This document shows positions 25,162 to 51,799 of a stretch of DNA of 64,000 bases, piece by piece. The position numbers were made by a program, and so were the translations under genes. The stretch spans positions 1-64,000 of the forward strand of contig JAWLHB010000013.1 in NCBI GenBank assembly GCA_041690595.1, in the 5' to 3' direction. Position 1 is the stretch's first letter. The number at the start of each line of letters is the position of its first letter. The notes under the pieces were generated by a model. It had not been told where the DNA came from and did not search any database. It saw only the letters and a program-made list of their open reading frames with translations. This stretch comes from Lentisphaeria bacterium (GTDB lineage Bacteria; Verrucomicrobiota; Lentisphaeria; JABSQK01; JAWLHB01).

Positions 25162-25242
25162 AGCGATTCGCTCAGATAGTGGCAATGGCGCGAGATGAAC
25201 GTTCTATTACTCCGCTTTATCACCAATCCGAGGAGAGAGATC

Positions 25243-28200
25243 ATGAGAGCCCTATCAACAATCATACTTGTCACAATATCCATCCTTGGCGCCGTGGTCG
25301 CGGCGGAGCCCCTGCTCGAGTTGAAGGAAACCTTCGGCGTCTCCCATCCCGACCAGCTTCTCTTCTTCGCTCCCGCTCGCCAGGTCGACCCGAACCATCA
25401 TTCCCTGCTCGATGCCGATGGCCGGTCACGCCCCTTCCAGCTGCTGAGCGACGGGCGGATTGCCGTGCGAACCGATCTGCCCGCGGGAGCCCACCGGCTC
25501 TGGCAGCTCGACGCAAAGGCCAGCGCCGAGCCCGATCCACAGGTGACGGTCTCCGAAGCGGATGACCATTGGGAGATCGCCAACGAGCTGCTCGCCATCC
25601 GCATCGCCAAGGCACAGCAAACCCTCGACCCAACCCCCGCCCCCATTCAAGGGCTGCGCCTGCGTGACGGTACCTGGACAGCCCTCGGCATGAACACCAT
25701 GCACCGCAACGCCCGCCAGATGCGCACCGAGTTTCTGGAGCGGGGACCACTGCTGGTGCGCCTGCGAGTCGTCTACGAGTACGATCGGGCGGAGCTGCGC
25801 GGCAACTACGAGCCTGTCACCATTCCGGCTGGAATAGGCGACTATTCCTGCACCATCGAGGTACAGGCGGGGCAGCCGTCAATCCTCTTCGAGGAGGAAA
25901 GCACCGTCGACCTCTCCTGGAGCATCCCGATTCACCATGGGCTGACGCCGACCCAGGCGCGTTACCGTGGCCATCACAGCAACTCCGTCGAGGCTGGGCG
26001 CGACGCTGCCGGCAACCAGTACGGCGCCGTCCAGACAGCCGCCGGCATCAACTATAACGGCGCCAGGGGGCAGGATGCCATCGTCGATCTCGACTATGAC
26101 GGCGGCGACAATCACCGCTTCTCCAGAACCCGCTATCCATACCTCTCGCACTGGGATCCGTGGGCCGTTGATACCGGCTACTACTGGATGCTCTTCAATC
26201 CCGACGCGGAGCATGATAACCTGCTTGGCGCATTCGCCGGCCCAGCCTCCCGCCTCATCGGTCCCGGCGTTTCCGGTGTCAGCTTCGATACCCGCACGGC
26301 CGAAGGTGAGCGGTACACGGCCCTGCAGGTCCGCTTCCAGCGCCTCAAGCCGACCCAGTATTACGATGCCCATATTCGTTTCGGCTGGGGACTCTTCCTC
26401 GGCAGGACCAGCGAGGATCTGCAGCCACCCGATGCGGTCCAGTCCATCCAGCGGCAGATGAACCTGCACGCCGGCGTCAACCTCACCACCCTCCTGCCCC
26501 TTCCGGACGACTACCCCGACCCGCCCCAGGGATACGGCAGCGTCTTTGTCGGTGACCATGTCTGGCGGCGCCTGGCCGCCATGCTGCAAGGCGCCCGTGC
26601 GGACAGTAACCCACACTTTGCCAACCACCTCAAGCACGTGGAAACCAGCGCCAGGGACCTCATCGAGTTCTGGGAGCAGCCGACACGCGAGAAGCTCAAC
26701 GGCTTCTATCTGCCGATGACCGAGTACTGGCGAAAGTACCTGGACACCCTGGTCAATGGCGAAGGGATCTATGAACACGCTACCCACTACTTCATGGGCT
26801 GCCTGCAGCACAGTGGCTACTTGCTCAAAGCCGACCAGGCCCTCGCTTCGGGGCTCCTCACGGAAGACGAGAAGCGGCTGCTCAAGCAGCAACTGGCATT
26901 GATCGGCCACCTGCTCTGGGAGAACAATCTGGTCCCCATGCATGCCGAAGCGCGCGTCAATCTCGGCCCCGCCAACATGTCACCGATGTGGCTTGGCACC
27001 CGCTACAAGTACACCGCCCTGCTGGCCAACCATCCCGCATTCACGGAGCGGGTCAAGGCCGTGCGGGACGAGACCGTGATGCTGATCGAACGCAATCTCA
27101 ACGAGGCCGGCAGCTCCAATGCCTGCCCCCACTACACCGGCGCCTCCATGGTACCCGTCCTCGATCTGCTCCAGCAACTGCAAATCGCCGGCGTCTGGGA
27201 CGGCTTCGCCGACATTCCCCGCGTCGCCGCCTTTGGTGAGTACGAACTCAACCTCCTGACCCCGCCCGAAATTCGCTTTGGCGGCCTCCGCAAGATCATT
27301 CCCGTCGGCGACGGCTCCACGGAAGATGCACCGCGCCTGGGGCAGCTCGCCACTGGCCTGGCCCCATCCAACCCCGCCCTCAGTGCCCGCCTCATCCAGG
27401 CCTGGTACGAGATGGGATGCCCCCACAACCAGTTTCACGGCACCTCACTGCTCAAGATCGACGATACGCTGCCCGCCGCCCCGCTGCGCCTTGGCGACGC
27501 GCATCTTCCCGGCGCTTACTCCGTCCTTCGCCATGGCGCCGGAACCCCCGCCGAGACAGCCGTCTGGATGGTCAACGGCGACTGGCACTTCGATCATCGC
27601 CACAACGACAACGGCAACCTCCTGATCTACGCCCTTGGCGCCCCACTCTCCGTCGACTGGGGCCCCATCTACTATCCGCGCGTCGAGGGAGGCATGCTGC
27701 ACAGCATCGTCCTCCCCGAGACCAATCTCCAGGAGCCATGGGATGCCCCCAGTATGCCCGTGAGCGCCGGAACGACCACTGGCGGCGTCCCCTACTGGTC
27801 CAGCACGGAACACCTCCCCTTCGACTCGCGCGACGACCGGGCGTCCATGGGTGCCCGCTTCCACTGGCGTCATGCCAAACAACCGCTCTCCTGGCAGCGG
27901 CTCGTCTCTCTCGAAAAGGGCACCTCCCCCATCATCCGCATCGAGGACAGCTTCGACGGAGAAGGAGCTGCCGGAACCGCCTTCGTCTCCACCCTCCTCC
28001 TGATGGCGGAAGGCCCTGTCGAAACGCCCTTTGGCCCCATCGAACCGGAAGTGCGGCTCTACGACAACCGCGACGTCAAGCACCAGGAGCTGCCCTCCGC
28101 CAGCCCGGGCCGGGAACTCGCCGCCGGACGCCACCGCTTCCGCTTCACCGGCCAGTTCCTCATCGATTTCGACCTCTATGTAGAGGTAAGCGAAGCCGCC

Positions 28201-28383
28201 GCCGTCTCGTTGGGCAACTGGGGACACACCTGGCACCCAAGCCGCGAAGCCCGCCAGTTCCAGAAGGCCACCGGCAAACCCTTTTCCGAAACCCAACACA
28301 TCCTGAGAGTACGTACCAGCGGCCCCTTGCGCTACACCATCGTACCCTACCTCAAAGGACATGAACCCGAGATACAACCATGA
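25243..28383 (+). CDS. Large secreted protein with heparinase II/III-like C-terminal region
   Basis: Signal peptide MRALSTIILVTISILGAVVAA; ACPHY, IIPVGDG, DHRHNDNGNLLIYALGAPLSVDWG. Confidence 0.65.
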   Translation: MRALSTIILVTISILGAVVAAEPLLELKETFGVSHPDQLLFFAPARQVDPNHHSLLDADGRSRPFQLLSDGRIAVRTDLPAGAHRLWQLDAKASAEPDPQVTVSEADDHWEIANELLAIRIAKAQQTLDPTPAPIQGLRLRDGTWTALGMNTMHRNARQMRTEFLERGPLLVRLRVVYEYDRAELRGNYEPVTIPAGIGDYSCTIEVQAGQPSILFEEESTVDLSWSIPIHHGLTPTQARYRGHHSNSVEAGRDAAGNQYGAVQTAAGINYNGARGQDAIVDLDYDGGDNHRFSRTRYPYLSHWDPWAVDTGYYWMLFNPDAEHDNLLGAFAGPASRLIGPGVSGVSFDTRTAEGERYTALQVRFQRLKPTQYYDAHIRFGWGLFLGRTSEDLQPPDAVQSIQRQMNLHAGVNLTTLLPLPDDYPDPPQGYGSVFVGDHVWRRLAAMLQGARADSNPHFANHLKHVETSARDLIEFWEQPTREKLNGFYLPMTEYWRKYLDTLVNGEGIYEHATHYFMGCLQHSGYLLKADQALASGLLTEDEKRLLKQQLALIGHLLWENNLVPMHAEARVNLGPANMSPMWLGTRYKYTALLANHPAFTERVKAVRDETVMLIERNLNEAGSSNACPHYTGASMVPVLDLLQQLQIAGVWDGFADIPRVAAFGEYELNLLTPPEIRFGGLRKIIPVGDGSTEDAPRLGQLATGLAPSNPALSARLIQAWYEMGCPHNQFHGTSLLKIDDTLPAAPLRLGDAHLPGAYSVLRHGAGTPAETAVWMVNGDWHFDHRHNDNGNLLIYALGAPLSVDWGPIYYPRVEGGMLHSIVLPETNLQEPWDAPSMPVSAGTTTGGVPYWSSTEHLPFDSRDDRASMGARFHWRHAKQPLSWQRLVSLEKGTSPIIRIEDSFDGEGAAGTAFVSTLLLMAEGPVETPFGPIEPEVRLYDNRDVKHQELPSASPGRELAAGRHRFRFTGQFLIDFDLYVEVSEAAAVSLGNWGHTWHPSREARQFQKATGKPFSETQHILRVRTSGPLRYTIVPYLKGHEPEIQP

Positions 28384-31442: not shown

Positions 31443-33968
31443 ATGACCATTCCCCAGTCGAAATTGACCCCCATGATGCGCCAGTATCATGACGCCAAGC
31501 AGGAACTGGCGGACGATGTGCTCCTCCTCTTCCGCATGGGCGACTTCTACGAGATGTTCTTCGACGACGCTGTCCGCGGCGCCAAGATCCTCGACATTAC
31601 CCTGACCCGGCGCAATGGCATCCCCATGGCCGGCATCCCCTACCACGCGTTGCAGACCTATCTGCCGAAGGTCCTCGACCAGGGGATCAAGGTCGCCATT
31701 GCCGAGCAGATGGAAGATCCCAAGGAGGCAAAGGGGCTCGTCAAGCGCGAGATCACCCAGATCATCACTCCCGGCACCATTGTCGAAGGTGACGTTCTGC
31801 ACGCCGCCCGGAGCAACTTCCTGGTCTCCCTCTGCCAGGGACGGCGCGACACCTTCGGCATTGCCTGCCTCGACATCAGCACCGCCGAGTTCCGCACGAC
31901 TCAGGTCGAAAATGTCGAGCAACTCGAAACCGAACTCCATCGCCTGCAGCCCGCCGAAGTCCTTCTCCCCATCGCCCTCCACGATCTCTGGCAGCAGGAT
32001 GGCTTCCCCGACGCCCCCAAACGTCTCGCCTGGACGCCCGTTGATGACTGGACCTTCGACGACTCCGTCGCCGGCGAACTCCTCCTGCGCCATTTCAGCG
32101 TCGCTTCCCTCGACGGCTTCGGCTGCCGCGAATTCCCCCTCGGTGTCCGCGCCGCCGGCGCCGTCCTCCACTACGCGCAGAACAGCCTCCGCCGCAACGC
32201 CGACCACATCACCCACCTCTCCCCCTACTCCTCCGCCAGCTACATGATGGTCGACCGCATCTCCCAGCGCAACCTCGAGCTGGTTGAACCTCTCTTCACC
32301 GACAGCCGCGATTCCACCCTCCTCTCCGTTCTCGACCAGACCATCACCCCCATGGGCGGCCGCCTGATGCGGGAATGGATTCTCCGCCCGCTCCTCGACC
32401 TCGACGCCATTGTCCACCGTCAGGACGTCGTGGAGACCTTTACCAGCGACCAACTGCTGCTGACGGAGCTTCGCGAGGTGCTCGGCGCCGTCCGCGACCT
32501 CGAGCGCACCATCGCCCGGATCAACGTCGGCTCCGCCAATGCCCGCGATCTTCTCGTCCTCCATCGCGGCATCACCGCCATCCCCGCCATCAAGCAGATT
32601 CTCGATGTCGCCCCCGAGACACGCCTCCTCAAGGAGATCGCCGCACGCTTGGTCGACCTGCCCGATGTGCGCGACCTGATCGTCCGCGCCATTGTCGACG
32701 ATCCACCCCTCACCGTCAAGGAAGGAGGCGTCATCCGGCCGGGCTATCATGCGTACCTTGACGAGCTGCGCAGCGCGGCCACCGAGGGCAAGGGCTGGAT
32801 CGCCGACCTCCAGGCCAAGGAGCAGAAGGAAACCGGCATCAAGGCCCTCAAGGTCCGCTACAACAAGGTCTTCGGCTACTACATCGAGATCAGCAAGAGC
32901 AACCTCGACCTCGTCCCCCAACGCTTCATCCGCAAGCAGACCCTCGTCAATGCCGAGCGCTTCATCACCCCCGAGCTGAAGGAGATCGAGGACAAGGTTC
33001 TCGGCTCGGAAGACAAGTCCAAGGCGCTTGAATACGAACTCTTCCAGGAAGTCCGCGGCCAGGTGGTCGCGCAGACCGGCACGATCCAGACCATCGCCCG
33101 CGCCATCGGCGAACTCGACGCGCTCTGCTCCCTGGCCGACATCGCCCTCAAGAACAACTACATCCGCCCGCAGATCACCGATGACCTCCTCATCGACGTG
33201 CGCGACGGCCGCCACCCGGTCATCGATCACGTGATGCGCGACGCCCCCTTTGTCCCCAACGACATCCTCCTCGACGGCACGGAAAACCAGCTCATCGTCA
33301 TCACCGGCCCCAACATGGCGGGTAAGTCCACCTATATCCGCCAGGTGGCGCTCCTCGTGCTGATGGCCCAGATGGGCAGCTTCATTCCCGCCTCCGCCGC
33401 CTCCGTCGGCATGGCCGACCGCATCTTCACCCGCATTGGCGCCGCCGACGATATCTCCCGCGGACAGTCCACCTTCATGGTCGAGATGCTGGAGACCGCC
33501 AACATCCTCAACAACGCCACCCCTCGCAGCCTGATCATCCTCGACGAGATCGGGCGCGGCACCAGCACCTTCGACGGACTCAGCATCGCCTGGGCCGTGA
33601 CCGAGTTCCTGCACGAGCAGGTGGCATCGCGGGCGCGCACCATGTTCGCCACCCACTACCACGAACTCACGCAACTCGCCAACAACCTTCAGGGCGTCCA
33701 GAACTACAACGTCGCGGTCAAGGAATGGGGCGACAAGGTGATCTTTCTTCACAAGATCATGCCCGGCGCCAGCGACAAGAGCTACGGCATTCACGTGGCC
33801 CGCCTCGCCGGTCTCCCCCGCTCCGTCCTCGATCGCGCCAAGGAAGTCTTGTCCAACCTCGAAGGCAATTCCCTCGACGAGGCCGATCGACCAAAAATCG
33901 CCCGCTCCCAGCGCAGCCGCGTCAAGGATGGCATCGATCCCGGGCAGCCCATGCTCTTCGAGTTCTGA
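31443..33968 (+). CDS. mutS: DNA mismatch repair protein MutS
   Basis: TPMMRQY, FRMGDFYEMF, TGPNMAGKSTY, STFMVEM, DEIGRGTST, FATHYHEL. Confidence 0.98.
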   Translation: MTIPQSKLTPMMRQYHDAKQELADDVLLLFRMGDFYEMFFDDAVRGAKILDITLTRRNGIPMAGIPYHALQTYLPKVLDQGIKVAIAEQMEDPKEAKGLVKREITQIITPGTIVEGDVLHAARSNFLVSLCQGRRDTFGIACLDISTAEFRTTQVENVEQLETELHRLQPAEVLLPIALHDLWQQDGFPDAPKRLAWTPVDDWTFDDSVAGELLLRHFSVASLDGFGCREFPLGVRAAGAVLHYAQNSLRRNADHITHLSPYSSASYMMVDRISQRNLELVEPLFTDSRDSTLLSVLDQTITPMGGRLMREWILRPLLDLDAIVHRQDVVETFTSDQLLLTELREVLGAVRDLERTIARINVGSANARDLLVLHRGITAIPAIKQILDVAPETRLLKEIAARLVDLPDVRDLIVRAIVDDPPLTVKEGGVIRPGYHAYLDELRSAATEGKGWIADLQAKEQKETGIKALKVRYNKVFGYYIEISKSNLDLVPQRFIRKQTLVNAERFITPELKEIEDKVLGSEDKSKALEYELFQEVRGQVVAQTGTIQTIARAIGELDALCSLADIALKNNYIRPQITDDLLIDVRDGRHPVIDHVMRDAPFVPNDILLDGTENQLIVITGPNMAGKSTYIRQVALLVLMAQMGSFIPASAASVGMADRIFTRIGAADDISRGQSTFMVEMLETANILNNATPRSLIILDEIGRGTSTFDGLSIAWAVTEFLHEQVASRARTMFATHYHELTQLANNLQGVQNYNVAVKEWGDKVIFLHKIMPGASDKSYGIHVARLAGLPRSVLDRAKEVLSNLEGNSLDEADRPKIARSQRSRVKDGIDPGQPMLFEF

Positions 33969-34155
33969 TTCCGCGCCCCCCCCCGGGCCTGGAGCCGGCG
34001 CGGCGCGACGCAATATTGTCGAAAGTGGCGGGAAATGGTGGCGGCAATGGTCGCATTCGAGGCGACGGCCCCGTATATTGGGGCTCCTGGAGCGCCGCGA
34101 GGCGCCGCAACCCAACCACCGATCAACCGGCAGCCTCAGTTTTTGGAGTGAGCGC

Positions 34156-34572
34156 ATGAGCATGAAGACGGTCTACCTGAGCGGCCCCATCATGGACGAG
34201 CATCTGGGCGCTGCACGTGAATGGCGCGATTCCGCCAAACACTTGCTGCGCAAGCACTTCCGCCTCCTCGATCCCATGCGCCGCGATTTCAAGGACCGTG
34301 AAGTGGACAGCGCCAACGAGATCGTCGAGTTCGACTTGCAGGACATTCGTGAAGCGGATATCATCCTCGTCAATTACAACAAGCCGAGCATCGGCACCAG
34401 CATGGAAGTCTTCTATGCCGCCCATGACCTGGGCAAATTCGTCATCTCCTTTTCCCCCTTCGATTTCCAGAACTGCAGCCCGTGGATGGTGCGGTACAGC
34501 ACCAAGATCCTGCCAGATCTCGAGGCGGCCTGTCGCTACCTGATCACCCATTTCGGTCCAGACCTCGAGTAG
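34156..34572 (+). CDS. Nucleoside 2-deoxyribosyltransferase-like / nucleotide N-glycosidase family protein
   Basis: KTVYLSGPI, DLQDIREADIILV, SIGTSMEVFYA; start 34156 or 34162. Confidence 0.8.
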   Translation: MSMKTVYLSGPIMDEHLGAAREWRDSAKHLLRKHFRLLDPMRRDFKDREVDSANEIVEFDLQDIREADIILVNYNKPSIGTSMEVFYAAHDLGKFVISFSPFDFQNCSPWMVRYSTKILPDLEAACRYLITHFGPDLE

Positions 34573-35722: not shown

Positions 35723-36952
35723 ATGTTGACAATCCGCCCCTTCAAAGCCCTCATGCCAACGCCGGAGAAGGCGGGACAGATCGCCGCGGTTCCCTATGAC
35801 GTCGTCTCGCGCGATGAAGCCGAAGCCCTCGCCGCCGGCAACCCCCACAGCTTCCTGCGCGTCTCCAGGCCCGATATCGAGTTTCCCCCTGATGCCGATC
35901 CCCACGCCGACGCTGTCTATCAGCGCGCCGCGGAGAACTTCGACAAGCTGAAAGGCGAGGTCCCGCTGATCCGCGATACCGCCGCGTCCTACTACATTTA
36001 CTCGATCGCCCGCGGCTCCCACCGCCAGAGTGGCCTCGTCGCCGCTCTCTCTGCGGACGATTATGACGAGTGCCGCATCCTCATTCACGAGAAGACGCGC
36101 GCCGAGAAGGAGGAAGATCGCACCCGTCACACCATGGCCATCCGTGCCCATTCCGGCCCCGTCTTTCTCGTCTGCCGATCCAGCTGGTCCATGGACAGCG
36201 CCATCCAGGAGATCATGGGCCAGGACACACCCCTCTTCGATGTCACCGTCGACAACACGCAGCACCAGGTATGGCGCGTTCCGGAAGGCTACAACGCCCT
36301 GCTCACCATGGTCTTCCACAAGATGCCCGCCCTCTACATCGCCGACGGCCACCACCGCGCCAAGAGCGCCAGCCGCGCCCGCGCCCTCTGTCGCCAGGAG
36401 AATGCCAGCCATGTCGGCGACGAGGACTACAACCGCTTCCTCGGTGTCATCTTTCCTCACAATCAGGTGCGCGTCCTCCCCTACAACCGCATCGTCCACG
36501 ACCTCAACGGCATGGACTCCGCCGCCTTCCTGGACAAGGTGAAGGAAGCCTTCGACGTCGCTCCCACCGATCAGGCCGTGCCCGCCAACCGTGGCGAGAT
36601 CCACATGTACCTCGATGACCGCTGGCTCCGCCTCAAAGCGCTCTCCCGCCCCACCGCCGCCTCGCCTGTCGACCTTCTCGACGTCAGCCTGCTCCAGAAC
36701 AGCCTCCTCGATCCCATCCTGGGGATCCAGGATCCTCGGCTCAGCGAACGCATCGCCTTCATCGGCGGCATCCGCGGCACGGATCACCTCGAAAAGCTGG
36801 TCCAGAGCGGCAAAGCTGCCGTCGCCTTTTCCATGTTCCCCACGACCACCGACGACCTGATGAAGATCGCCGAACTCAACGAAAGCATGCCACCGAAATC
36901 CACCTGGTTTGAGCCGAAGCTGCTCGACGGCCTCTTGATCCACACGTTTTGA
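35723..36952 (+). CDS. DUF1015 family protein
   Basis: IRPFKAL, PYDVV, ILIHEKT, YIADGHHR, PYNR, MPPKSTWFEPKL..GL. Confidence 0.9.
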   Translation: MLTIRPFKALMPTPEKAGQIAAVPYDVVSRDEAEALAAGNPHSFLRVSRPDIEFPPDADPHADAVYQRAAENFDKLKGEVPLIRDTAASYYIYSIARGSHRQSGLVAALSADDYDECRILIHEKTRAEKEEDRTRHTMAIRAHSGPVFLVCRSSWSMDSAIQEIMGQDTPLFDVTVDNTQHQVWRVPEGYNALLTMVFHKMPALYIADGHHRAKSASRARALCRQENASHVGDEDYNRFLGVIFPHNQVRVLPYNRIVHDLNGMDSAAFLDKVKEAFDVAPTDQAVPANRGEIHMYLDDRWLRLKALSRPTAASPVDLLDVSLLQNSLLDPILGIQDPRLSERIAFIGGIRGTDHLEKLVQSGKAAVAFSMFPTTTDDLMKIAELNESMPPKSTWFEPKLLDGLLIHTF

Positions 36953-36962
36953 AGCTGAATCC

Positions 36963-38396
36963 ATGAGTGACCAAGAACTCGAATTGCCTGTCGATCCGGA
37001 CGAGGATGCACCCATCCCGCCACCCGCCGCTGGCCCGACCGTGCCCCTCTCCGCGGATCACGAGACGGTCAGCGACGTCATGGATTATGTCGAGGTCGAG
37101 CATCGCCGATTCGGGCTCAGCGAACTCAACCGCGTCCAGGCAGTCGGCTACTTCATGCCGCTCCTGCGCGAGATCTTCGGCGGCGGCGAACCCAAGACCA
37201 AACTCCTCTTCGCCATGCTTCATGGCCTGATGGTGGACGACCGCGTCCGCTGGTCGCGCCAGGAACTCGACGAAAAGTTTCACTGGCTGCGCGAAACGCA
37301 CCGCAACTACCTCATCTACCGGCTGAGCAACGTCGGCTGGCTCGAGTATTTCCGCGATCGCGGCGTCTACATGATCAGCGACAAGGGCGAAGCCCTGATG
37401 CGCATCCTCAGCCGCTTCGCCATGGGACGCCAACTCGTCGAGAACGAAGGCGCCGCTCTCGCTGAAATCGAGTTCAGCATCCTCCTCGACCTGGACGACC
37501 TGCCCGATCGCCTCAAGTTCCTCCGCAACCGCCTCATGAAGCACAGCATCCGCGCCGAGCTGGCACTCCATTCCGAAAGCGCCTACCGCATCCTCGAGAT
37601 CTACGAGCAGCTCAAGAGCGCCTATCGATGGGCCGAGCAGACCCGCAGGACCCTCGACCACATCGAGGTCGAAGACGACGATTCCGAGCAGTGGGAGGCC
37701 ATCCGCGGCGTTCACGACCACCTCTCCAAGCTGCATGAGCTGATCTCCACCATGCAGCTCACCCTCCAGGACATCCAGCGCAAACAGATCGACATCGCCC
37801 GCTACGGACTCACCCATCTGGACATCGACCGCTACCTCATCAACGCCACCGTCGATGACCTCAGCGACATGCTCTGCCGTCACCTCACCAAAATCCCCCA
37901 TCCTTTCCTCGTCGTCGAAGACAACCTCTTCGGCGAGGCCGACGACATCGTCAACCGTGATGTTGCCGACGAGGACGACGGACGTGGCTGGGACACCGAT
38001 GTCGACCACGCCGAGGCCGAAACCCATCCGCAGGCCGCCGCCGAAGCCGATGAGCTGGTCGGACAACTCCGCGCCGCTCCCAGTAAATGGCGGAACATCG
38101 ACTACCTGGTCGACTCCGTGCCCTGGGAAGTCGCCGCCTATCGCTTTTCCATTCTGACCCTCATGGCGGACCTTGAAGGCCGCATGAAAACCGCTCCCGG
38201 AGAGGACTCCGCCGACCCCATTGTCAACGTCCCCGTTCGCATCGCCTTCGACCGTGACAACCGTCTGGTCGACTTCCCGCATGGCGAGGAAACTTGGACC
38301 ATGACCGCGGGCAGGATAAGACGACTTGACCCGGACGCGGATGAGGATAAAGTGAGGGACTCAAACGAGGGGGAAGAGCAGGACACCAATGGCTGA
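36963..38396 (+). CDS. Putative kleisin-like subunit (MksF/JetA/MukF positional analogue)
   Basis: N-terminal winged-helix-like segment (WSRQEL...LIYRLSNVGWLEY...YMISDKG), helical middle, acidic linker; first gene of a triad ending in an SMC ATPase. Confidence 0.6.
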   Translation: MSDQELELPVDPDEDAPIPPPAAGPTVPLSADHETVSDVMDYVEVEHRRFGLSELNRVQAVGYFMPLLREIFGGGEPKTKLLFAMLHGLMVDDRVRWSRQELDEKFHWLRETHRNYLIYRLSNVGWLEYFRDRGVYMISDKGEALMRILSRFAMGRQLVENEGAALAEIEFSILLDLDDLPDRLKFLRNRLMKHSIRAELALHSESAYRILEIYEQLKSAYRWAEQTRRTLDHIEVEDDDSEQWEAIRGVHDHLSKLHELISTMQLTLQDIQRKQIDIARYGLTHLDIDRYLINATVDDLSDMLCRHLTKIPHPFLVVEDNLFGEADDIVNRDVADEDDGRGWDTDVDHAEAETHPQAAAEADELVGQLRAAPSKWRNIDYLVDSVPWEVAAYRFSILTLMADLEGRMKTAPGEDSADPIVNVPVRIAFDRDNRLVDFPHGEETWTMTAGRIRRLDPDADEDKVRDSNEGEEQDTNG

Positions 38397-39087
38397 GTTT
38401 CTCGATCGATCCGGCAGAGAAGACAAACAGGAACCCACCGAACCGGACGTCTCCGTCTACGAGGAGCGCGTTCAGGAACTCTGTGGATTGCTCCTTGCCA
38501 ACGGCTACCTGCACAAGGAAGACGCCCGCGACCTCCTCTACGACGAGCTCCTGCGCGAGCAGCTGGCAAAGCGTCTCGACACCGTCGGCATGAAGCTGAT
38601 TCACAACATGTACGCCGAGTATTGGGGCGTCGGTCTGAACGACCGCACCGCCTCCGATGACCGGCTCGAGTGGTCCAACAATTTTGGTCTCGAACGCGGC
38701 GCCATGGCCTTGCTCCTCATACTCTGGTGCAAGCTGATCCTCCCCAAGCGCCTCGCCCAGGAAGAGCGTCAGCCCGAGGATGGCACCGTCGCCTCCCTCT
38801 TTCCGGAAGTCGAAAAGATGCCGAACCCCCGCGTCAACGTCAGCCGCGATCAGATCATCGCGGAGTTTGGCGACATGCTCGGCGGCGTCTCCATGACCAG
38901 CCGCTACGTGGCGCAACTGGCGCGCGCCCGCCTCATCAAAGCCCACGGCGGCCTCATCGAAGAAGGCCCACTCCTCCCCTTGGTCATTGACGAAAACCGG
39001 TTGACCGACGAGCTGCGGCGTGAGGTCCTCGTCAGCCTCCTGCGGCGCGAACGGCAGGCGAGCCAGGAGAGCGGCACCGATGTTTGA
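38389..39087 (+). CDS. Putative KITE-like subunit (MksE/JetB/MukE positional analogue)
   Basis: 232 aa with two winged-helix-like halves (VSRDQI...QLARARLI...EGPLLPLVI); overlaps both neighbours by 8 nt. Confidence 0.62.
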   Translation: MAEFLDRSGREDKQEPTEPDVSVYEERVQELCGLLLANGYLHKEDARDLLYDELLREQLAKRLDTVGMKLIHNMYAEYWGVGLNDRTASDDRLEWSNNFGLERGAMALLLILWCKLILPKRLAQEERQPEDGTVASLFPEVEKMPNPRVNVSRDQIIAEFGDMLGGVSMTSRYVAQLARARLIKAHGGLIEEGPLLPLVIDENRLTDELRREVLVSLLRRERQASQESGTDV

Positions 39088-41872
39088 GTTTCGCTATGTC
39101 GAATTGATGAACTGGGCCTACTGGCCCACCATGCGCGTCCCCCTCGATCAGCGCACCATCATGATCACCGGCCCCAACGGCAGCGGCAAGACCACCTTCC
39201 TCGATGCCCTGCGCACCCTGCTGAGGGCACCCCGCATGAGCGCGGGCCGCCGCTTCACCGAATACCTGATCGGCCGCGTCGATACCGCCGTCATCAAGGC
39301 CGTGGTTACCAACGACCTCCATCAGCGTGAAGCGCGCCCCTTCGAGTTCAAAGGCTTCATGAACGACCAGGTCACCCTGGCCGTGGTCCTCAAGCGCCGC
39401 GGCGGCCGCTGGGAGCGCCGCTTCACCATCCAGGAAGGCGATGTCTCCCTGCAGAATATCCGCGAACTCAAGAGCAACGAATTTCTTGGTCCCGAGACCT
39501 ACACCCGCGAGATCCAGAAGGCCGGCTTCTCGGAAGCGTTTCTCAAGGTGCTCGCCCTCGAACAGGGCCAGACCGACAAGCTCTGCGAAAAGTCCCCCCG
39601 CGAACTCCTCGACCTCCTCCTCGACGTCCACGGCGACAAGATGATCATCGAACGCTACCGCCAGGCGCGCGAGAATTATCAGACAGCCAATCTTGAGGTC
39701 ACCCAGTTGGCTGGCCGCCTCGCTGAAGAACAGGCCAAGCTCCTTTCCTCCCAACGCGCCGCCGAACAGTACGAGCGTTATCAACAGCTCATGGGCGAGA
39801 AGGCCAACTACGAGAATGTCCTCATTCCTCAGGCCGAGTACAACCAGGCGCTGCGTGAGATCCAGGAAAGCGAACTCGCCATCAACGACCTCAATGTCCG
39901 CCTCGGCCCCCTCGACCGCGAGATCATCGACGTCGAGATGCAGCTCAACAACGTGGAATCCGAGCTTGCCCGCCGCAAGCAGGCCGTCATCGAGACGCGC
40001 GCCAAGAAGGAGACCCTCGACAAGGAAGAACGCAAGCTAGACATCGATCTCAACGGCCTCCTCAAGGAGCGCCGCCAGCTCGACGAGCTCCTCGACGCCG
40101 TCGAAGATGCCAAGAGCGAACCGCTCCCCCCCCTGCGAAAAAGCTTTGACGAGGCGCGCCACGAGGTCGTTCGTTTCCAGCTGCAGCAGGAGCAGGAGCG
40201 CGATCGACTTCGTCAGCTGCGAGGCGAGCTCGAAGGGCTCGACTGGGAGAAGCACAAGATCTATCCCCGCTTCGTCAACGAGTTCAACCAGGTTCTGGCG
40301 GAGAACTCCATCAACTTCGTCCTGCTCTGCGACCTCATCGAGATCACCGACCAGCAGTGGCAGCTCGCCATCGAGTCCATCCTCGGCCGCGACCGCTTCA
40401 CCATCCTGGTGAGCAAGGCCGATCAGCGCCGCACCCGCGAGCTGGCGGAGCGCAACCGCTACCGCTGCTACGTCGTCGAGCGTGAGACCAGTGGCCGGCG
40501 GCCACGCAAGCGCGAGCAGAACTGCGCCCTCGACTTCGTCCAGTTGCTGGAGGAAGGCGTCCCCTACTGGGTACTGGAGACCCTGTCGCGCACCATCCTC
40601 GTCGACACCGTGCAGGACGGCTTGAAGCTGGGCAGCGATTTCACCAGTGTCACCCGCCAGGGCTATCGTCAGGATAACCGCGGCGGCATCTCCATCGCCA
40701 CCGAGCAGTTCTACTGCGGCAGCCTGGGGCAGACCGCCCAGCAGAGCGATCTCCGCGACGCCATCGGCCGCGTCCAGAGCAACCTCGCCACCATCGATAA
40801 ACAGCTCGCCGACGCCAGCCGGCGCGAGCAGGATTTCCAGCGTCGCATCCTCATCCAGGAAAACCTCGGCCGCGCCAGCGAAGCCCGCAATCGCCGCCAG
40901 CAGATGGACGACCAGATTGCCGATCTCAACCAGAAGCACCATCAGGCCCTCGACTTCTGCCGCCTTGCCGAACGCCGCCTCTTCGATGCCGTCGACGAAC
41001 TCAACAACTTCGAACGCGATACCCGCGATCAACGTCAGTTCCTCCATGAAAAGCGCGACGACCAAAGCGAGTATCTTGACGAGATCAAGGATTTCCAGCG
41101 CCGCCTGACCCACCTCAAGGATCAGCAGCAGACCATTTCCGCCAAGCTCAGCCCTGATCTCCTCACGGAAAGCGCCCTGCGGAAGGTTGCCAGTCTCGAC
41201 GAGCTGACACCCCGCTATTACGCCGTGCAGAACATGCTGGAGCAGTTTACCGAAGAGCCCGAAGCCTCCGCCGTCGAGGTCTACGAGCATCACAAGAGCC
41301 AGTACGAACGGCAGCGGAAGATCTACCGCGAACACGAAGCCGGCCTGCGCAATTGGGAAACGGAGTTCAAACTGGCCAAGGAGAAGTACCTGGTCGTCGT
41401 CGAGCACACCATTCGCGAGTATCGCAAGAATGTGCTGGCACTCTCGGAGCTGGCCGGCGTCAGCGCCGACGTCGTCCTGCCCAACCTCCGCGGCGAAGAC
41501 GACAGCCTCGACAATGCCGAACTCAATGTGCGCATCGGCTATGACGGCAAACGGGCCACCTCGATCGGCGGCGCGGGCCACTCCGGCGGGCAACGCGTCG
41601 TCTCCAGCCTCATCCTCCTGATGTCCCTAGCCACCTCCGGCGGCATCAGCCGCGGCGGCTTCTTCATCATCGACGAGCCCTTTGCCCACCTCAGCCTCGA
41701 ACGCATCGACGACGTCACCCGCTTCCTCGACAAGACCCAGTGTCAGTTCATCCTGACCTCACCGACGACCCACAACGTCAACGTCTTCAATGCGGCGCGG
41801 CTGCAGCTCAACTTCCGCATCAAGCTGCCCAACGCCAAGACCGCCGCAATCCCGACGATCATCCGCCGTTGA
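39080..41872 (+). CDS. SMC-family ATPase (MksB/JetC-like), ~930 aa
   Basis: VELMNW, Walker A GPNGSGKTT, Q-loop LEQGQ, two long coiled coils around a hinge-like LCDLIEI...WQLAIESILG, signature HSGGQR, Walker B FFIIDEPF. Confidence 0.9.
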   Translation: MFEFRYVELMNWAYWPTMRVPLDQRTIMITGPNGSGKTTFLDALRTLLRAPRMSAGRRFTEYLIGRVDTAVIKAVVTNDLHQREARPFEFKGFMNDQVTLAVVLKRRGGRWERRFTIQEGDVSLQNIRELKSNEFLGPETYTREIQKAGFSEAFLKVLALEQGQTDKLCEKSPRELLDLLLDVHGDKMIIERYRQARENYQTANLEVTQLAGRLAEEQAKLLSSQRAAEQYERYQQLMGEKANYENVLIPQAEYNQALREIQESELAINDLNVRLGPLDREIIDVEMQLNNVESELARRKQAVIETRAKKETLDKEERKLDIDLNGLLKERRQLDELLDAVEDAKSEPLPPLRKSFDEARHEVVRFQLQQEQERDRLRQLRGELEGLDWEKHKIYPRFVNEFNQVLAENSINFVLLCDLIEITDQQWQLAIESILGRDRFTILVSKADQRRTRELAERNRYRCYVVERETSGRRPRKREQNCALDFVQLLEEGVPYWVLETLSRTILVDTVQDGLKLGSDFTSVTRQGYRQDNRGGISIATEQFYCGSLGQTAQQSDLRDAIGRVQSNLATIDKQLADASRREQDFQRRILIQENLGRASEARNRRQQMDDQIADLNQKHHQALDFCRLAERRLFDAVDELNNFERDTRDQRQFLHEKRDDQSEYLDEIKDFQRRLTHLKDQQQTISAKLSPDLLTESALRKVASLDELTPRYYAVQNMLEQFTEEPEASAVEVYEHHKSQYERQRKIYREHEAGLRNWETEFKLAKEKYLVVVEHTIREYRKNVLALSELAGVSADVVLPNLRGEDDSLDNAELNVRIGYDGKRATSIGGAGHSGGQRVVSSLILLMSLATSGGISRGGFFIIDEPFAHLSLERIDDVTRFLDKTQCQFILTSPTTHNVNVFNAARLQLNFRIKLPNAKTAAIPTIIRR

Positions 41873-49584: not shown

Positions 49585-51546
49585 TCAGTGTATCAGCCCA
49601 ATCTCCCAAGGGGCGAGTACCGGCACCTGGAGGGTGCGATATGCGCCGTCGGTGCCGATTGCAGGGACCTCCACTTCGGAGCCATCGAGCCGCAGCAGGT
49701 GATACGGCTCCTGCGACAAGGTCTGGAGTTGCACGCCAGATACGGTGTCGAGGGAAGCGTTGAGCAGGGGCATCACCAGCTTGCCTGCCGCGTCGCGGCG
49801 GCACCAGAGCGCGACCTTGTGGAAGGAGCTGACGTAGGCGGGAAGCGTGTCCCGCGAGAGCCAGCGGCATAGTGTCCTCATCTGTGTGCTCTTCGACAGG
49901 TTCTGCAGCGACGTCCAAGGGTAATAACCGAGTACGGCGACGCGGCCGCCGAGGCGGTTCTCAAAGACGCCCATCACCGACCCGTGGCTGCGCTCTTGAA
50001 AATCAATCAGCTCCGCCAACGGCCGTGACTGGTCACTGAGCGGCCGAAGAATATGAGCATCGGTGCGCCAGAACGAGGGGCGGCAATCGCGCCACCAGCC
50101 TGCATGCACGCCATTAATGGGATCGGTGGTGAAGCGCTCGATGGTGTCCCGATCGCGACAGCCAGCGGTCTCGAAGCCGGCCAGCTCCGCCAGACCGAGC
50201 TGCTCAAGATGCTGGAGGGCTGGGCCGTCGACGAGCGCGGCTTCGGAGAGGAGCTGTACCAGCTCGGACTCGGAGAAGGCTCGTACGGCGTCGCCGGCGA
50301 GCAGGTGAATACGGGCGCCGCCGCGAGCGTAGGCGGGGGGCAGGCCGATCTCCGCCAACTCGGTGAGGCACCACAGGGGATCGGCAGTGCCCTGGCCGAT
50401 GCGGGCCGCCCACGTCTCCGTCGTAATGGCGGGCCAGATGCCTTCGCAGGGGCGCCGCTCCACCAGGCCAACCAGCCGGTCGAAGAAGGGGCGAGCATCG
50501 GCAATGCGGTCAAAGTACGGCAGATATTCCGCAAAAGGATCCGGGGAAATGCCCATGAGATTGAGGGCAACGCCGGTACATCCCGCCGCCATGGCGGCAC
50601 CAGTTTCGGCCACAAACATGGTCTCGCTCTTCTGAAGCTTCTGGTAGGGGAAGTTCTCGTGCTCGTACTGAACGTCGACGGCGTCAGTGGGGATTGCCTC
50701 CGCCGTACGGCCCATCAGGTGGATCTTACGGAGCGCATCAAGCGGCTTGTCGTCCTTGTAGAAGCCGCCGCCGGGGCGCCACTTGACGGGGAGGCCAGCC
50801 TGACCGGAGAGTATCGTGTGCCAACCCGGGTAGTCCATGCCCTCATACAGCTGATTGGTGGGCATGTACCCCAGCACCAGCTTGGGGTCCACCTCGTCCA
50901 CCGCGCCGCGGATAAGGGTGAAGATCTCGTTGAAGATGCGGCGGTTATGCTCCACCCACTGTCGGCGTATCTGGCGCGAAGCGCGGATGCCTTCATTGTG
51001 AATCTCCTCCATGGCACGCTCGCGGCTCCATTTCTCCCCGGTTTCCTCGCTGAAGCGCGCCAGACAGAGGTCGCAAAAGCAGGAGAAGCCGGCAGGCGGA
51101 TGGTGCGCCATGCGGATGTCGTCATCGATCCAGATGAAATCGGGTTCGGCCTCGGCCAGAAGGCGATAGCAGTCGCGGGTGAACTGCTGGAAGCGCGGGT
51201 CGAGCGGGCAGAAACTGCCTTTCGCTTCGATTCCCTCGATCGAGGTAATCCTCTGCCAGGGCTCGTCGAGCGCGTTGTCGAGATTCTCGTCGAGATGGCC
51301 CATGGTGGCCAGGTGATTGATGCCGGCGCGGAGCCCCAATGCCCGGAATTGGGGGATGATCGCGTGCAGCTGCTTCGCCCGCTGCGCCAAGGTGTCGTAC
51401 GGCAGCACCGAGTGGGTGAAGGAGGTGAAGAACGCGACCTCTTCGATGGTCTCGCGGCGGCTCGCGAGCATCTCCAGCAAGTCGGCACGGCGGTCGTGGC
51501 TGGTCCAGAGGTGGGTACTTATGCGCAACGATACGATGCTCTGCAT
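49585..51546 (-). CDS. Hypothetical protein, possibly TIM-barrel glycoside hydrolase-like
   Basis: ~653 aa ORF with typical codon usage; FCP.DP, FIWIDDDIR, CFCDLC motifs seen in GH-like proteins. Confidence 0.55.
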   Translation of the reverse strand: MQSIVSLRISTHLWTSHDRRADLLEMLASRRETIEEVAFFTSFTHSVLPYDTLAQRAKQLHAIIPQFRALGLRAGINHLATMGHLDENLDNALDEPWQRITSIEGIEAKGSFCPLDPRFQQFTRDCYRLLAEAEPDFIWIDDDIRMAHHPPAGFSCFCDLCLARFSEETGEKWSRERAMEEIHNEGIRASRQIRRQWVEHNRRIFNEIFTLIRGAVDEVDPKLVLGYMPTNQLYEGMDYPGWHTILSGQAGLPVKWRPGGGFYKDDKPLDALRKIHLMGRTAEAIPTDAVDVQYEHENFPYQKLQKSETMFVAETGAAMAAGCTGVALNLMGISPDPFAEYLPYFDRIADARPFFDRLVGLVERRPCEGIWPAITTETWAARIGQGTADPLWCLTELAEIGLPPAYARGGARIHLLAGDAVRAFSESELVQLLSEAALVDGPALQHLEQLGLAELAGFETAGCRDRDTIERFTTDPINGVHAGWWRDCRPSFWRTDAHILRPLSDQSRPLAELIDFQERSHGSVMGVFENRLGGRVAVLGYYPWTSLQNLSKSTQMRTLCRWLSRDTLPAYVSSFHKVALWCRRDAAGKLVMPLLNASLDTVSGVQLQTLSQEPYHLLRLDGSEVEVPAIGTDGAYRTLQVPVLAPWEIGLIH

Positions 51547-51799
51547 GGGGCGACTCCTCTTGTGGTGCGGACGCATTGGAAGCCAGCGAGATCAATACTC
51601 TCATTCGGCCAAAGTGCAAGCTCGGGTCGGGCAGAGGCATTGGCCTGTGGACGGGGCACGTCTCCATTCTCTTCTCTGTTGGGAGGCAATATTCTTCGGC
51701 GCCTTCTTGCGAACAATGCTTTGTGATGTAGGTTACAGCGCATAGTGGATAGAAAGTGATCCTACGAGATAATGAGTGCAACTATTACGGAGAAGAGGC

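Follow-up and report, generated by a model that had tools for sequence, protein, structure and literature searches.

Three translationally coupled genes in the window (the whole stretch of 64,000 nucleotides that was analysed, positions 1 to 64,000 of contig JAWLHB010000013.1 of a Lentisphaeria bacterium) encode a predicted kleisin, a predicted KITE (kleisin-interacting tandem winged-helix element) protein and an SMC (structural maintenance of chromosomes) ATPase. We refer to these open reading frames (ORFs) as ORF1, ORF2 and ORF3, and together as the triad. The triad is probably an SMC complex of the MksBEF type within the Wadjet/Mks group, with short arms, a highly diverged sequence and no nuclease. 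By analogy to Pseudomonas aeruginosa MksBEF and Escherichia coli MukBEF, its job is most likely chromosome folding and segregation. A chromosomal role is favoured because the triad lies among core genes, its conservation in the order looks vertical and it is nearly absent from plasmids. It is also favoured because no nuclease accompanies the family and no Smc-ScpAB was found in the host. The analysis thus supports the view, put forward in an earlier sequence-only reading, that chromosome organisation is a more likely function than plasmid cutting.

The junction sequences bear out the description of three coupled ORFs of 477, 232 and about 930 amino acids (aa) with overlaps of 8 nucleotides (nt). 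The ORF1/ORF2 overlap is ATGGCTGA at 38389-38396 and the ORF2/ORF3 overlap is ATGTTTGA at 39080-39087, both with the pattern ATGnnnTGA. The overlap at the end of ORF2 places the start of ORF3 at the ATG at 39080 (930 aa) and not at the upstream GTG at 39020. The database copy of the ORF3 protein, also 930 aa, agrees with this start, and the ATPase family consensus begins MF.F..LELMNW at the Met encoded by the same ATG. The G+C content at third codon positions (GC3) of the three ORFs is ~0.80-0.84, as for real genes in the window, and there is no compositional break at the triad (window G+C 58-65%). A promoter/terminator scan found no terminator-like site on the + strand inside the locus; its promoter part was at chance level, with 2 promoter-like sites against 1.7 expected.

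ORF3 is an SMC-type ATPase with all motifs intact, two arms and a hinge. Its complete split ATP-binding cassette (ABC) head, arms and hinge-like centre had been recognised from the sequence, and Pfam matches and invariant motifs confirm them. Pfam identifies SMC_N (E 1.2e-14) and AAA_29 (7e-11), and SMC_hinge (PF06470) matches residues 417-518 with an E of 1.2e-5 and 26.1 bits against a cut-off of 22.5. The ORF3 residue numbers used here (417-518, 535-548 and 836-867) were counted from 39077 and are one too high for the start at ATG 39080. Across 18 aligned family members there is no or almost no variation in Walker A, in the signature SGGQ, in the Q-loop Gln and the H-loop His, or in the Walker B residues D866 and E867, and R535, G536, G537 and G548 are invariant just past the hinge match. 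Among the PADLOC models, those of JetC1 match ORF3 best (E 7.9e-28). When PDB sequences were searched with a profile of the ORF3 family, the best match was Smc3 (2.1e-23, largely through the arms), followed by JetC (8dk2_C, 1.5e-16), Smc2 and Smc1; no MukB appeared among the matches at E≤1e-3.

A phylogeny of the ATPase heads, proposed as a check in the sequence-only reading, separates the family from Smc. The tree was built from head segments (N- and C-terminal) of 33 sequences and rooted on the RecN of the window's genome. It includes 22 family members, six Smc proteins of the same phylum, two type I JetC proteins of class relatives, the genome's own type II JetC, E. coli MukB and RecN. One further type I JetC, at locus L061, was left out, since from its start as called the Walker A region is missing. 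The triad ATPase family is monophyletic, with a support of 99 in the Shimodaira-Hasegawa-like approximate likelihood ratio test (SH-aLRT). It joins type I JetC, type II JetC and MukB to the exclusion of Smc with an SH-aLRT of 93, a split below 95 in a tree that has long branches and just four Wadjet-group rows; the relations within this group are unresolved. At the N-terminus the head alignment shows the L.L.NW motif of the Mks type in place of the GFKSF of the Smc type. The family has a shorter stem (2.55) than JetC1 (6.24) and JetC2 (5.76), and the branching inside its Lentisphaeria clade has good support. This support, together with ATPase identities of 52-59% across families of the window's order, is consistent with vertical descent in the order.

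The two smaller proteins are recognisable by their predicted folds. Both were modelled with AlphaFold 2 (AF2) from alignments that included distant homologues, and comparison with Foldseek found the folds that the sequence-only reading had named for them, MukF/JetA for ORF1 and MukE/JetB/Nse1-3 for ORF2. The ORF2 model has a predicted local distance difference test (pLDDT) score of 81 and consists of two winged-helix units. Its best match is JetB (8as8_C, 8.5e-6; also 8dk1_F/E), followed by ScpB, MukE and Nse1/Nse3, and its sequence matches the PADLOC model JetB1 with an E of 4.2e-4. As judged from the model, ORF2 is a KITE protein. In the ORF1 model (pLDDT 70), residues ~76-138 form an N-terminal winged helix, 160-310 a helical middle domain, 332-357 a linker modelled with low confidence and 360-455 a C-terminal domain of helix and beta-hairpin. 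Foldseek matches it best to MukF (9gm7_C, 4.6e-5; 7nz2_C1, 7.6e-4) and then to type II JetA (9qe0_E, 3.6e-3). By predicted fold only, ORF1 is a MukF/JetA-type kleisin. Predicted folds, gene order and the head tree together bear out the earlier assignment of the triad to the kleisin/KITE/SMC operons of the MukFEB-MksFEB-JetABC pattern.

The structural alignment of ORF1 needs to be read with caution. In eight MukF entries, VIA-align puts ORF1 residues 160-282 onto the middle domain of MukF (112-123 residues, root-mean-square deviation 2.8-3.2 Å) with Z scores of 10.1-10.6, and Z scores below ~13 can be common for helical domains. Therefore, the kleisin reading rests on the domain order, the full-length Foldseek matches and the operon context. 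The N-terminal part of ORF1 resembles MarR-type winged helices in the same program (Z 8-9). The sequence signal is faint: Pfam JetA matches ORF1 with an E of 0.042 and is weakly found in 10 of 19 family members, and 26 full-length kleisin representatives yielded no JetA, MukF or DUF3375 match at E≤0.01. The sequence ties of ORF1 and ORF2 to JetA and JetB fall under the curated cut-offs. In NCBIfam, ORF1 has no family and ORF2 gives nothing above noise, and the ORF1 and ORF2 family profiles reach best E values of 0.36 and 0.42 against PDB sequences. All of their homologues are annotated as 'hypothetical protein' and have no Pfam domains. As a lead only, a features search of the ESM Atlas put ORF1 nearest to unnamed clusters and then to DUF2397 and MukF clusters.

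A predicted complex of one ORF1 and two ORF2 chains supports kleisin-KITE binding with two ORF2 copies per ORF1. Its interaction score from predicted aligned errors (ipSAE) is 0.64 (0.62-0.65 in three runs), compared to 0.00 for the best control. This score is reached by 116 of 157 solved complexes and by 2 of 215 mismatched pairs; solved MukEF and JetAB complexes exist, and the ORF1-ORF2 pass may partly reflect likeness to them. The runs have at least 65% of their contacts in common and a partner pLDDT of at least 69, with ORF2 contacting ORF1 residues 275-330.

Features of the triad and related features (ORF3 residues numbered as in the text; empty cells, not given)
Feature	Position	Strand	Details
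mksF-like kleisin gene (ORF1), putative	36963..38396	+	477 aa ORF
mksE-like KITE gene (ORF2), putative	38389..39087	+	232 aa ORF; predicted tandem winged-helix domains
mksB-like SMC ATPase gene (ORF3)	39080..41872	+	930 aa; split ABC head, two arms, central hinge
Walker A motif of ORF3	39170..39196	+	GPNGSGKTT; invariant in 18/18 aligned family members
Hinge-like region of ORF3	40325..40630	+	Pfam SMC_hinge PF06470, residues 417-518
Signature motif and Walker B of ORF3	41582..41680	+	SGGQ and GFFIIDEP; S836, G837, G838, Q839, D866, E867 invariant
DUF1015 gene	35723-36952		ends 10 nt upstream of ORF1
Type II Wadjet operon of the window's genome	contig C35, locus L014:6029-12965	minus	DUF2397 530 aa, DUF2398 251 aa, JetC 1189 aa, JetD_C/DUF2399 412 aa

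These components suggest how the complex may work. By analogy to MukBEF and JetABC, the 930-aa MksB-like ATPase would dimerise at its hinge, and the MukF/JetA-like kleisin would bridge the ATPase heads through its C-terminal winged helix and its middle domain. Two copies of the KITE protein would sit on the middle/linker segment of the kleisin. The complex would then spend ATP to entrap DNA and extrude loops. We infer its assembly from the structural models, and its loop extrusion and cellular role are likewise inferred. Since there is no JetD, the triad cannot cut plasmids as a Wadjet does.

The absence of a nuclease seems to be a trait of the triad family and not a local loss, because no JetD was found beside the triad at eight other complete loci and no JetD_C match was found anywhere in the genomes of ten triad-bearing relatives from the order. 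The simple local loss of jetD that the sequence-only reading had weighed against itself was therefore not seen. The eight loci, four from the same order (L063-L066) and four from distant phyla (L032, L033, L035 and L036), all have the F-E-B gene order. Five same-order loci were examined; at the fifth (L067) ORF1 and ORF2 are missing, and a 100-N assembly gap just upstream of the ATPase gene makes it uninformative. The distant sample is small, comprising the four loci with flanks among the matches listed (at least seven loci). When these four were compared all against all, the triad genes were the only ones shared; their flanks contain leuS, lptE, holA, TamB, a dihydrolipoamide dehydrogenase-type oxidoreductase and similar genes, and no JetD.

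The wider family is uniform in size and uneven in distribution. The ATPase homologues are 925-945 aa long. Most homologues at 52-75% identity are metagenomic proteins without a source name, the named ones coming from metagenome-assembled genomes (MAGs) of Lentisphaeria (one labelled Verrucomicrobia). At 28-35% identity, homologues occur in Myxococcales MAGs, Burkholderiales (Corticibacter, Herbaspirillum, Lampropedia and Aquabacterium), Luteibacter, Nitrospirae, Nitrosospira, Massilia and a Sericytochromatia MAG. Among 1.84 billion proteins, a kleisin profile matched 323 representative clusters with E limited to ≤1e-3, and 170 and 80 at the stricter limits of 1e-10 and 1e-30. A tblastn search of 72,556 plasmid records returned three partial matches, all on non-mobilisable replicons of 429-816 kb. 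The triad family thus forms a rare, compact Wadjet/Mks branch that seems never to carry a nuclease.

The genomic background of the triad is unusual in that no Smc-ScpAB was found. The window's genome (8.1 Mb, 99 contigs, 97% complete) has one copy of each triad gene. Its best match to the Smc model TIGR02168 is ORF3 itself, and the ScpA and ScpB models gave no match; absences at the genome level mean here that a gene was not found in the draft genomes searched. Neither Smc (E≤1e-30) nor ScpB was found in any of 41 sampled genomes of the window's class. In a phylum-wide sample, 113 of 201 genomes have Smc; for genomes from families of the class, the count is none of 66. With no Smc-ScpAB found in the genome or the class, the triad is therefore the only candidate chromosomal condensin here. 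The sequence-only reading had proposed a genome-wide search for jetD/mksG and smc-scpAB; a JetD_C match does exist, on contig C35, within a type II Wadjet operon distinct from the triad. Literature searches returned nothing relevant on Lentisphaeria with SMC, condensin or ScpB. We also observed that the sole ParB_N match in this genome is weak (36.7 bits, C5:81007-81243, in a 510-aa frame), and a canonical ParB of ~290 aa may be missing too.

Besides the thin head tree and the faint ORF1 and ORF2 signals described above, several observations weigh against a chromosomal role. Of 151 class genomes, 11 were matched by a profile of the triad ATPase, and every one of these belongs to the window's order, which is represented by 15 genomes. 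The triad was thus not found in four order genomes, one of them 95% complete in three contigs, nor in any of the 136 class genomes outside the order. It therefore cannot be indispensable. Five near-complete class genomes outside the order have no Smc-like frame and only SMC_N frames of the size of RecN, RecF or transporters. The class seems able to live without a recognisable SMC-kleisin complex, and therefore the triad need not be an essential replacement for one. Canonical Smc was found in three of four distant host genomes, all proteobacterial (none was found in the Sericytochromatia MAG), and this coexistence suggests an accessory role there. Literature searches found no published report that this class may be without a recognisable SMC-kleisin complex, and no published study of the short-armed FEB family beyond a catalogue entry discussed below. 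Given these points, we put forward only tentatively, as a proposal that could easily prove wrong, that the order uses a short-armed, nuclease-free MksFEB as its sole chromosomal condensin, with the rest of the class living without a recognisable SMC-kleisin complex.

The same distribution could reflect defence. The triad might control plasmids without cleaving them: small circular DNA could be entrapped or silenced, as viral DNA is by Smc5/6, or an unlinked effector that was not recognised might be involved. The Wadjet group is mostly defensive. In the operon table of 869 rows (Data S1) from Bürmann et al. (2025; Cell, PMC7617805), present in two copies, the word 'FEB' stands 186 times, implying 93 nuclease-free operons. 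A patchy spread over Lentisphaeria, Myxococcales, Burkholderiales, Nitrospirae and Sericytochromatia, the presence of the triad alongside Smc in three of the four other hosts and its absence from four of 15 order genomes also fit a defence function. However, the four distant loci have no conserved fourth gene, the flanks hold core genes and not defence genes, and the triad is almost absent from plasmids. The short stem of the family relative to JetC1 and JetC2, the good support within its Lentisphaeria clade and the identities across families of the order, which are consistent with vertical descent, also argue against it. We consider defence unlikely, and a chromosomal function remains our preferred reading.

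It is highly improbable that the triad borrows its nuclease from the type II Wadjet on contig C35, as a split system. A JetD_C gene is indeed present in the genome, but this sole match sits in its own complete DUF2397-DUF2398-JetC-JetD operon, and all ten triad-bearing relatives are without any JetD. The triad ATPase profile also misses the genome's own type II JetC at E≤1e-3, and therefore the triad and the C35 Wadjet are very distant from each other. JetD_C was found in 11 of 151 class genomes (140 were without it), in the window's order only in the window's genome, and JetD in one of the four distant host genomes, on a contig numbered C10. Upstream of the C35 Wadjet, two ORFs of 799 and 939 aa without a Pfam match may belong to a defence island. 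Elsewhere in the class, a type I-like JetC/JetD pair has an 800-aa ORF without a Pfam match (G018, L061:4935-7337) immediately upstream. This ORF may represent a JetA/JetB region that was fused or rearranged, or else a frameshift; the called start of the JetC beside it lacks the Walker A region. That the triad is a decaying, functionless remnant, which its absence from some order genomes might suggest, is equally remote given three open frames with coupled starts, invariant ATPase motifs and 52-70% identity of ORF1, ORF2 and ORF3 to homologues in other families of the order.

Annotation of the flanks confirms the setting that the sequence-only reading had described, with DUF1015 upstream, a convergent PP2C gene downstream, no JetD in the flanks within the window, and the triad among core genes such as mreB, mutS and Amidase_3. 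Upstream on the same strand are an aldo/keto reductase, HIT, mreB, mutS, a nucleoside deoxyribosyltransferase-like gene and Amidase_3. The PP2C gene converges on the 3' end of the triad, and further downstream are glucose-6-phosphate dehydrogenase, a glucosamine-6-phosphate isomerase/6-phosphogluconolactonase-domain gene, glycogen phosphorylase and a sulfatase. DUF1015 also adjoins the triad in two of five loci of same-order relatives. As called, the nucleoside 2-deoxyribosyltransferase-like ORF (33928-34572) shares ~40 nt with the end of mutS; since Pfam matches it only from residue 80 onwards, its true start is probably further downstream. Two large genes in the window have no Pfam family at E≤1e-5 and a coding-like GC3, one at 25195-28383 (+, 1062 aa) and one at 49585-51576 (-, 663 aa).

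Comparison with known systems sets the triad apart from most of them. Lamassu consists of an SMC-like ATPase, LmuB, with an LmuA effector, and has no kleisin/KITE pair and no hinge. The PADLOC model of LmuB matches ORF3 (2.9e-20), but the triad has kleisin-like and KITE-like partners, a hinge match and no flanking effector gene. ORF3 has in common with Smc-ScpAB the SMC_hinge match and Smc3 as its best PDB match. It is nevertheless not Smc, as it scores 92 bits against the TIGR02168 cut-off of 567, ORF1 and ORF2 have no Pfam match to ScpA or ScpB, and its partners are MukF/JetA-like. MukBEF in the strict sense was also rejected: the N-terminal Pfam domain of MukB reaches only an E of 0.085 and 13 bits against a cut-off of 23, and there is no MukF or MukE match. 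E. coli MukBEF shares with the triad its F-E-B order, the lack of a nuclease and the predicted kleisin fold, whereas MukB is 1486 aa long and ORF3 930 aa.

Type I Wadjet resembles the triad in part. JetABCD of E. coli (8as8/8q72) and P. aeruginosa PA14 (8dk1/8dk2) provides the closest fold for the predicted KITE protein ORF2, its PADLOC models are the best for ORF2 and ORF3, and its JetC (8dk2_C) is matched by the ORF3 family profile. In contrast, ORF1 falls under the DUF3375 and JetA cut-offs, and the type I JetC proteins of class relatives are 1173-1183 aa long compared to ~930 aa for the triad ATPase. Type I Wadjet also carries JetD. An anti-plasmid system of the JetABCD/MksBEFG kind was rejected for the triad, whose operon lacks the Toprim-fold JetD/MksG.

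MksBEF of P. aeruginosa, reportedly described by Petrushenko and colleagues in 2011, resembles the triad in overall make-up, as a three-gene MukBEF-like complex without a nuclease. It coexists with Smc-ScpAB in Pseudomonas, whereas no Smc-ScpAB was found in the host of the triad. Two studies portray it as a chromosomal complex that organises and segregates the chromosome (Lioy et al., 2020, bioRxiv; Zhao et al., 2020, mSphere). All eight Pseudomonas rows in PMC7617805 Data S1 are FEBG.

The FEB catalogue in PMC7617805 contains the same family as the triad. Data S1 lists Lentisphaeria bacterium GCA_022969115.1 as 'FEB' with the MksB MCJ8330090.1, which is 930 aa long and 55% identical to ORF3. 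Massilia albidiflava is also 'FEB', with an mksB of 2829 nt, a size that fits the Massilia homologue (L036). Both ATPases are in the head-hinge alignment of that study. The suggestion of the sequence-only reading that the family is possibly undescribed therefore does not stand. In 30 listed rows, mksB is ~3.2-4.2 kb, and the ~2.8-kb form is a minority. The accessible portion of the catalogue lists the operon and is silent on its function, its structure, the short-armed subgroup and the absence of Smc-ScpAB in the host. What was known is thus the family as a catalogue entry; the new elements, relative to that portion, are the host context and the lack of an Smc or ScpB match in the sampled class genomes. 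The host context comprises a genome with no Smc, ScpA or ScpB match and a complete type II Wadjet of its own, a triad confined within the class to one order, and ten relatives that have the triad but no JetD. This host context merits a note to specialists.

Placing the triad beside MksBEF also has practical value. Pfam, NCBIfam and PADLOC name neither ORF1 nor ORF2, and databases label the three proteins 'hypothetical', 'AAA family ATPase' or 'chromosome segregation ATPase'; the labels mksF, mksE and mksB would mend this gap in annotation. The lineage offers a natural test case both for chromosome organisation without Smc-ScpAB or MukBEF and for the recruitment of defence-type SMC complexes to housekeeping. 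If the order does use the triad as its sole chromosomal condensin, it would be a second, independent case of a Wadjet-group complex replacing Smc-ScpAB, as MukBEF did in enterobacteria.

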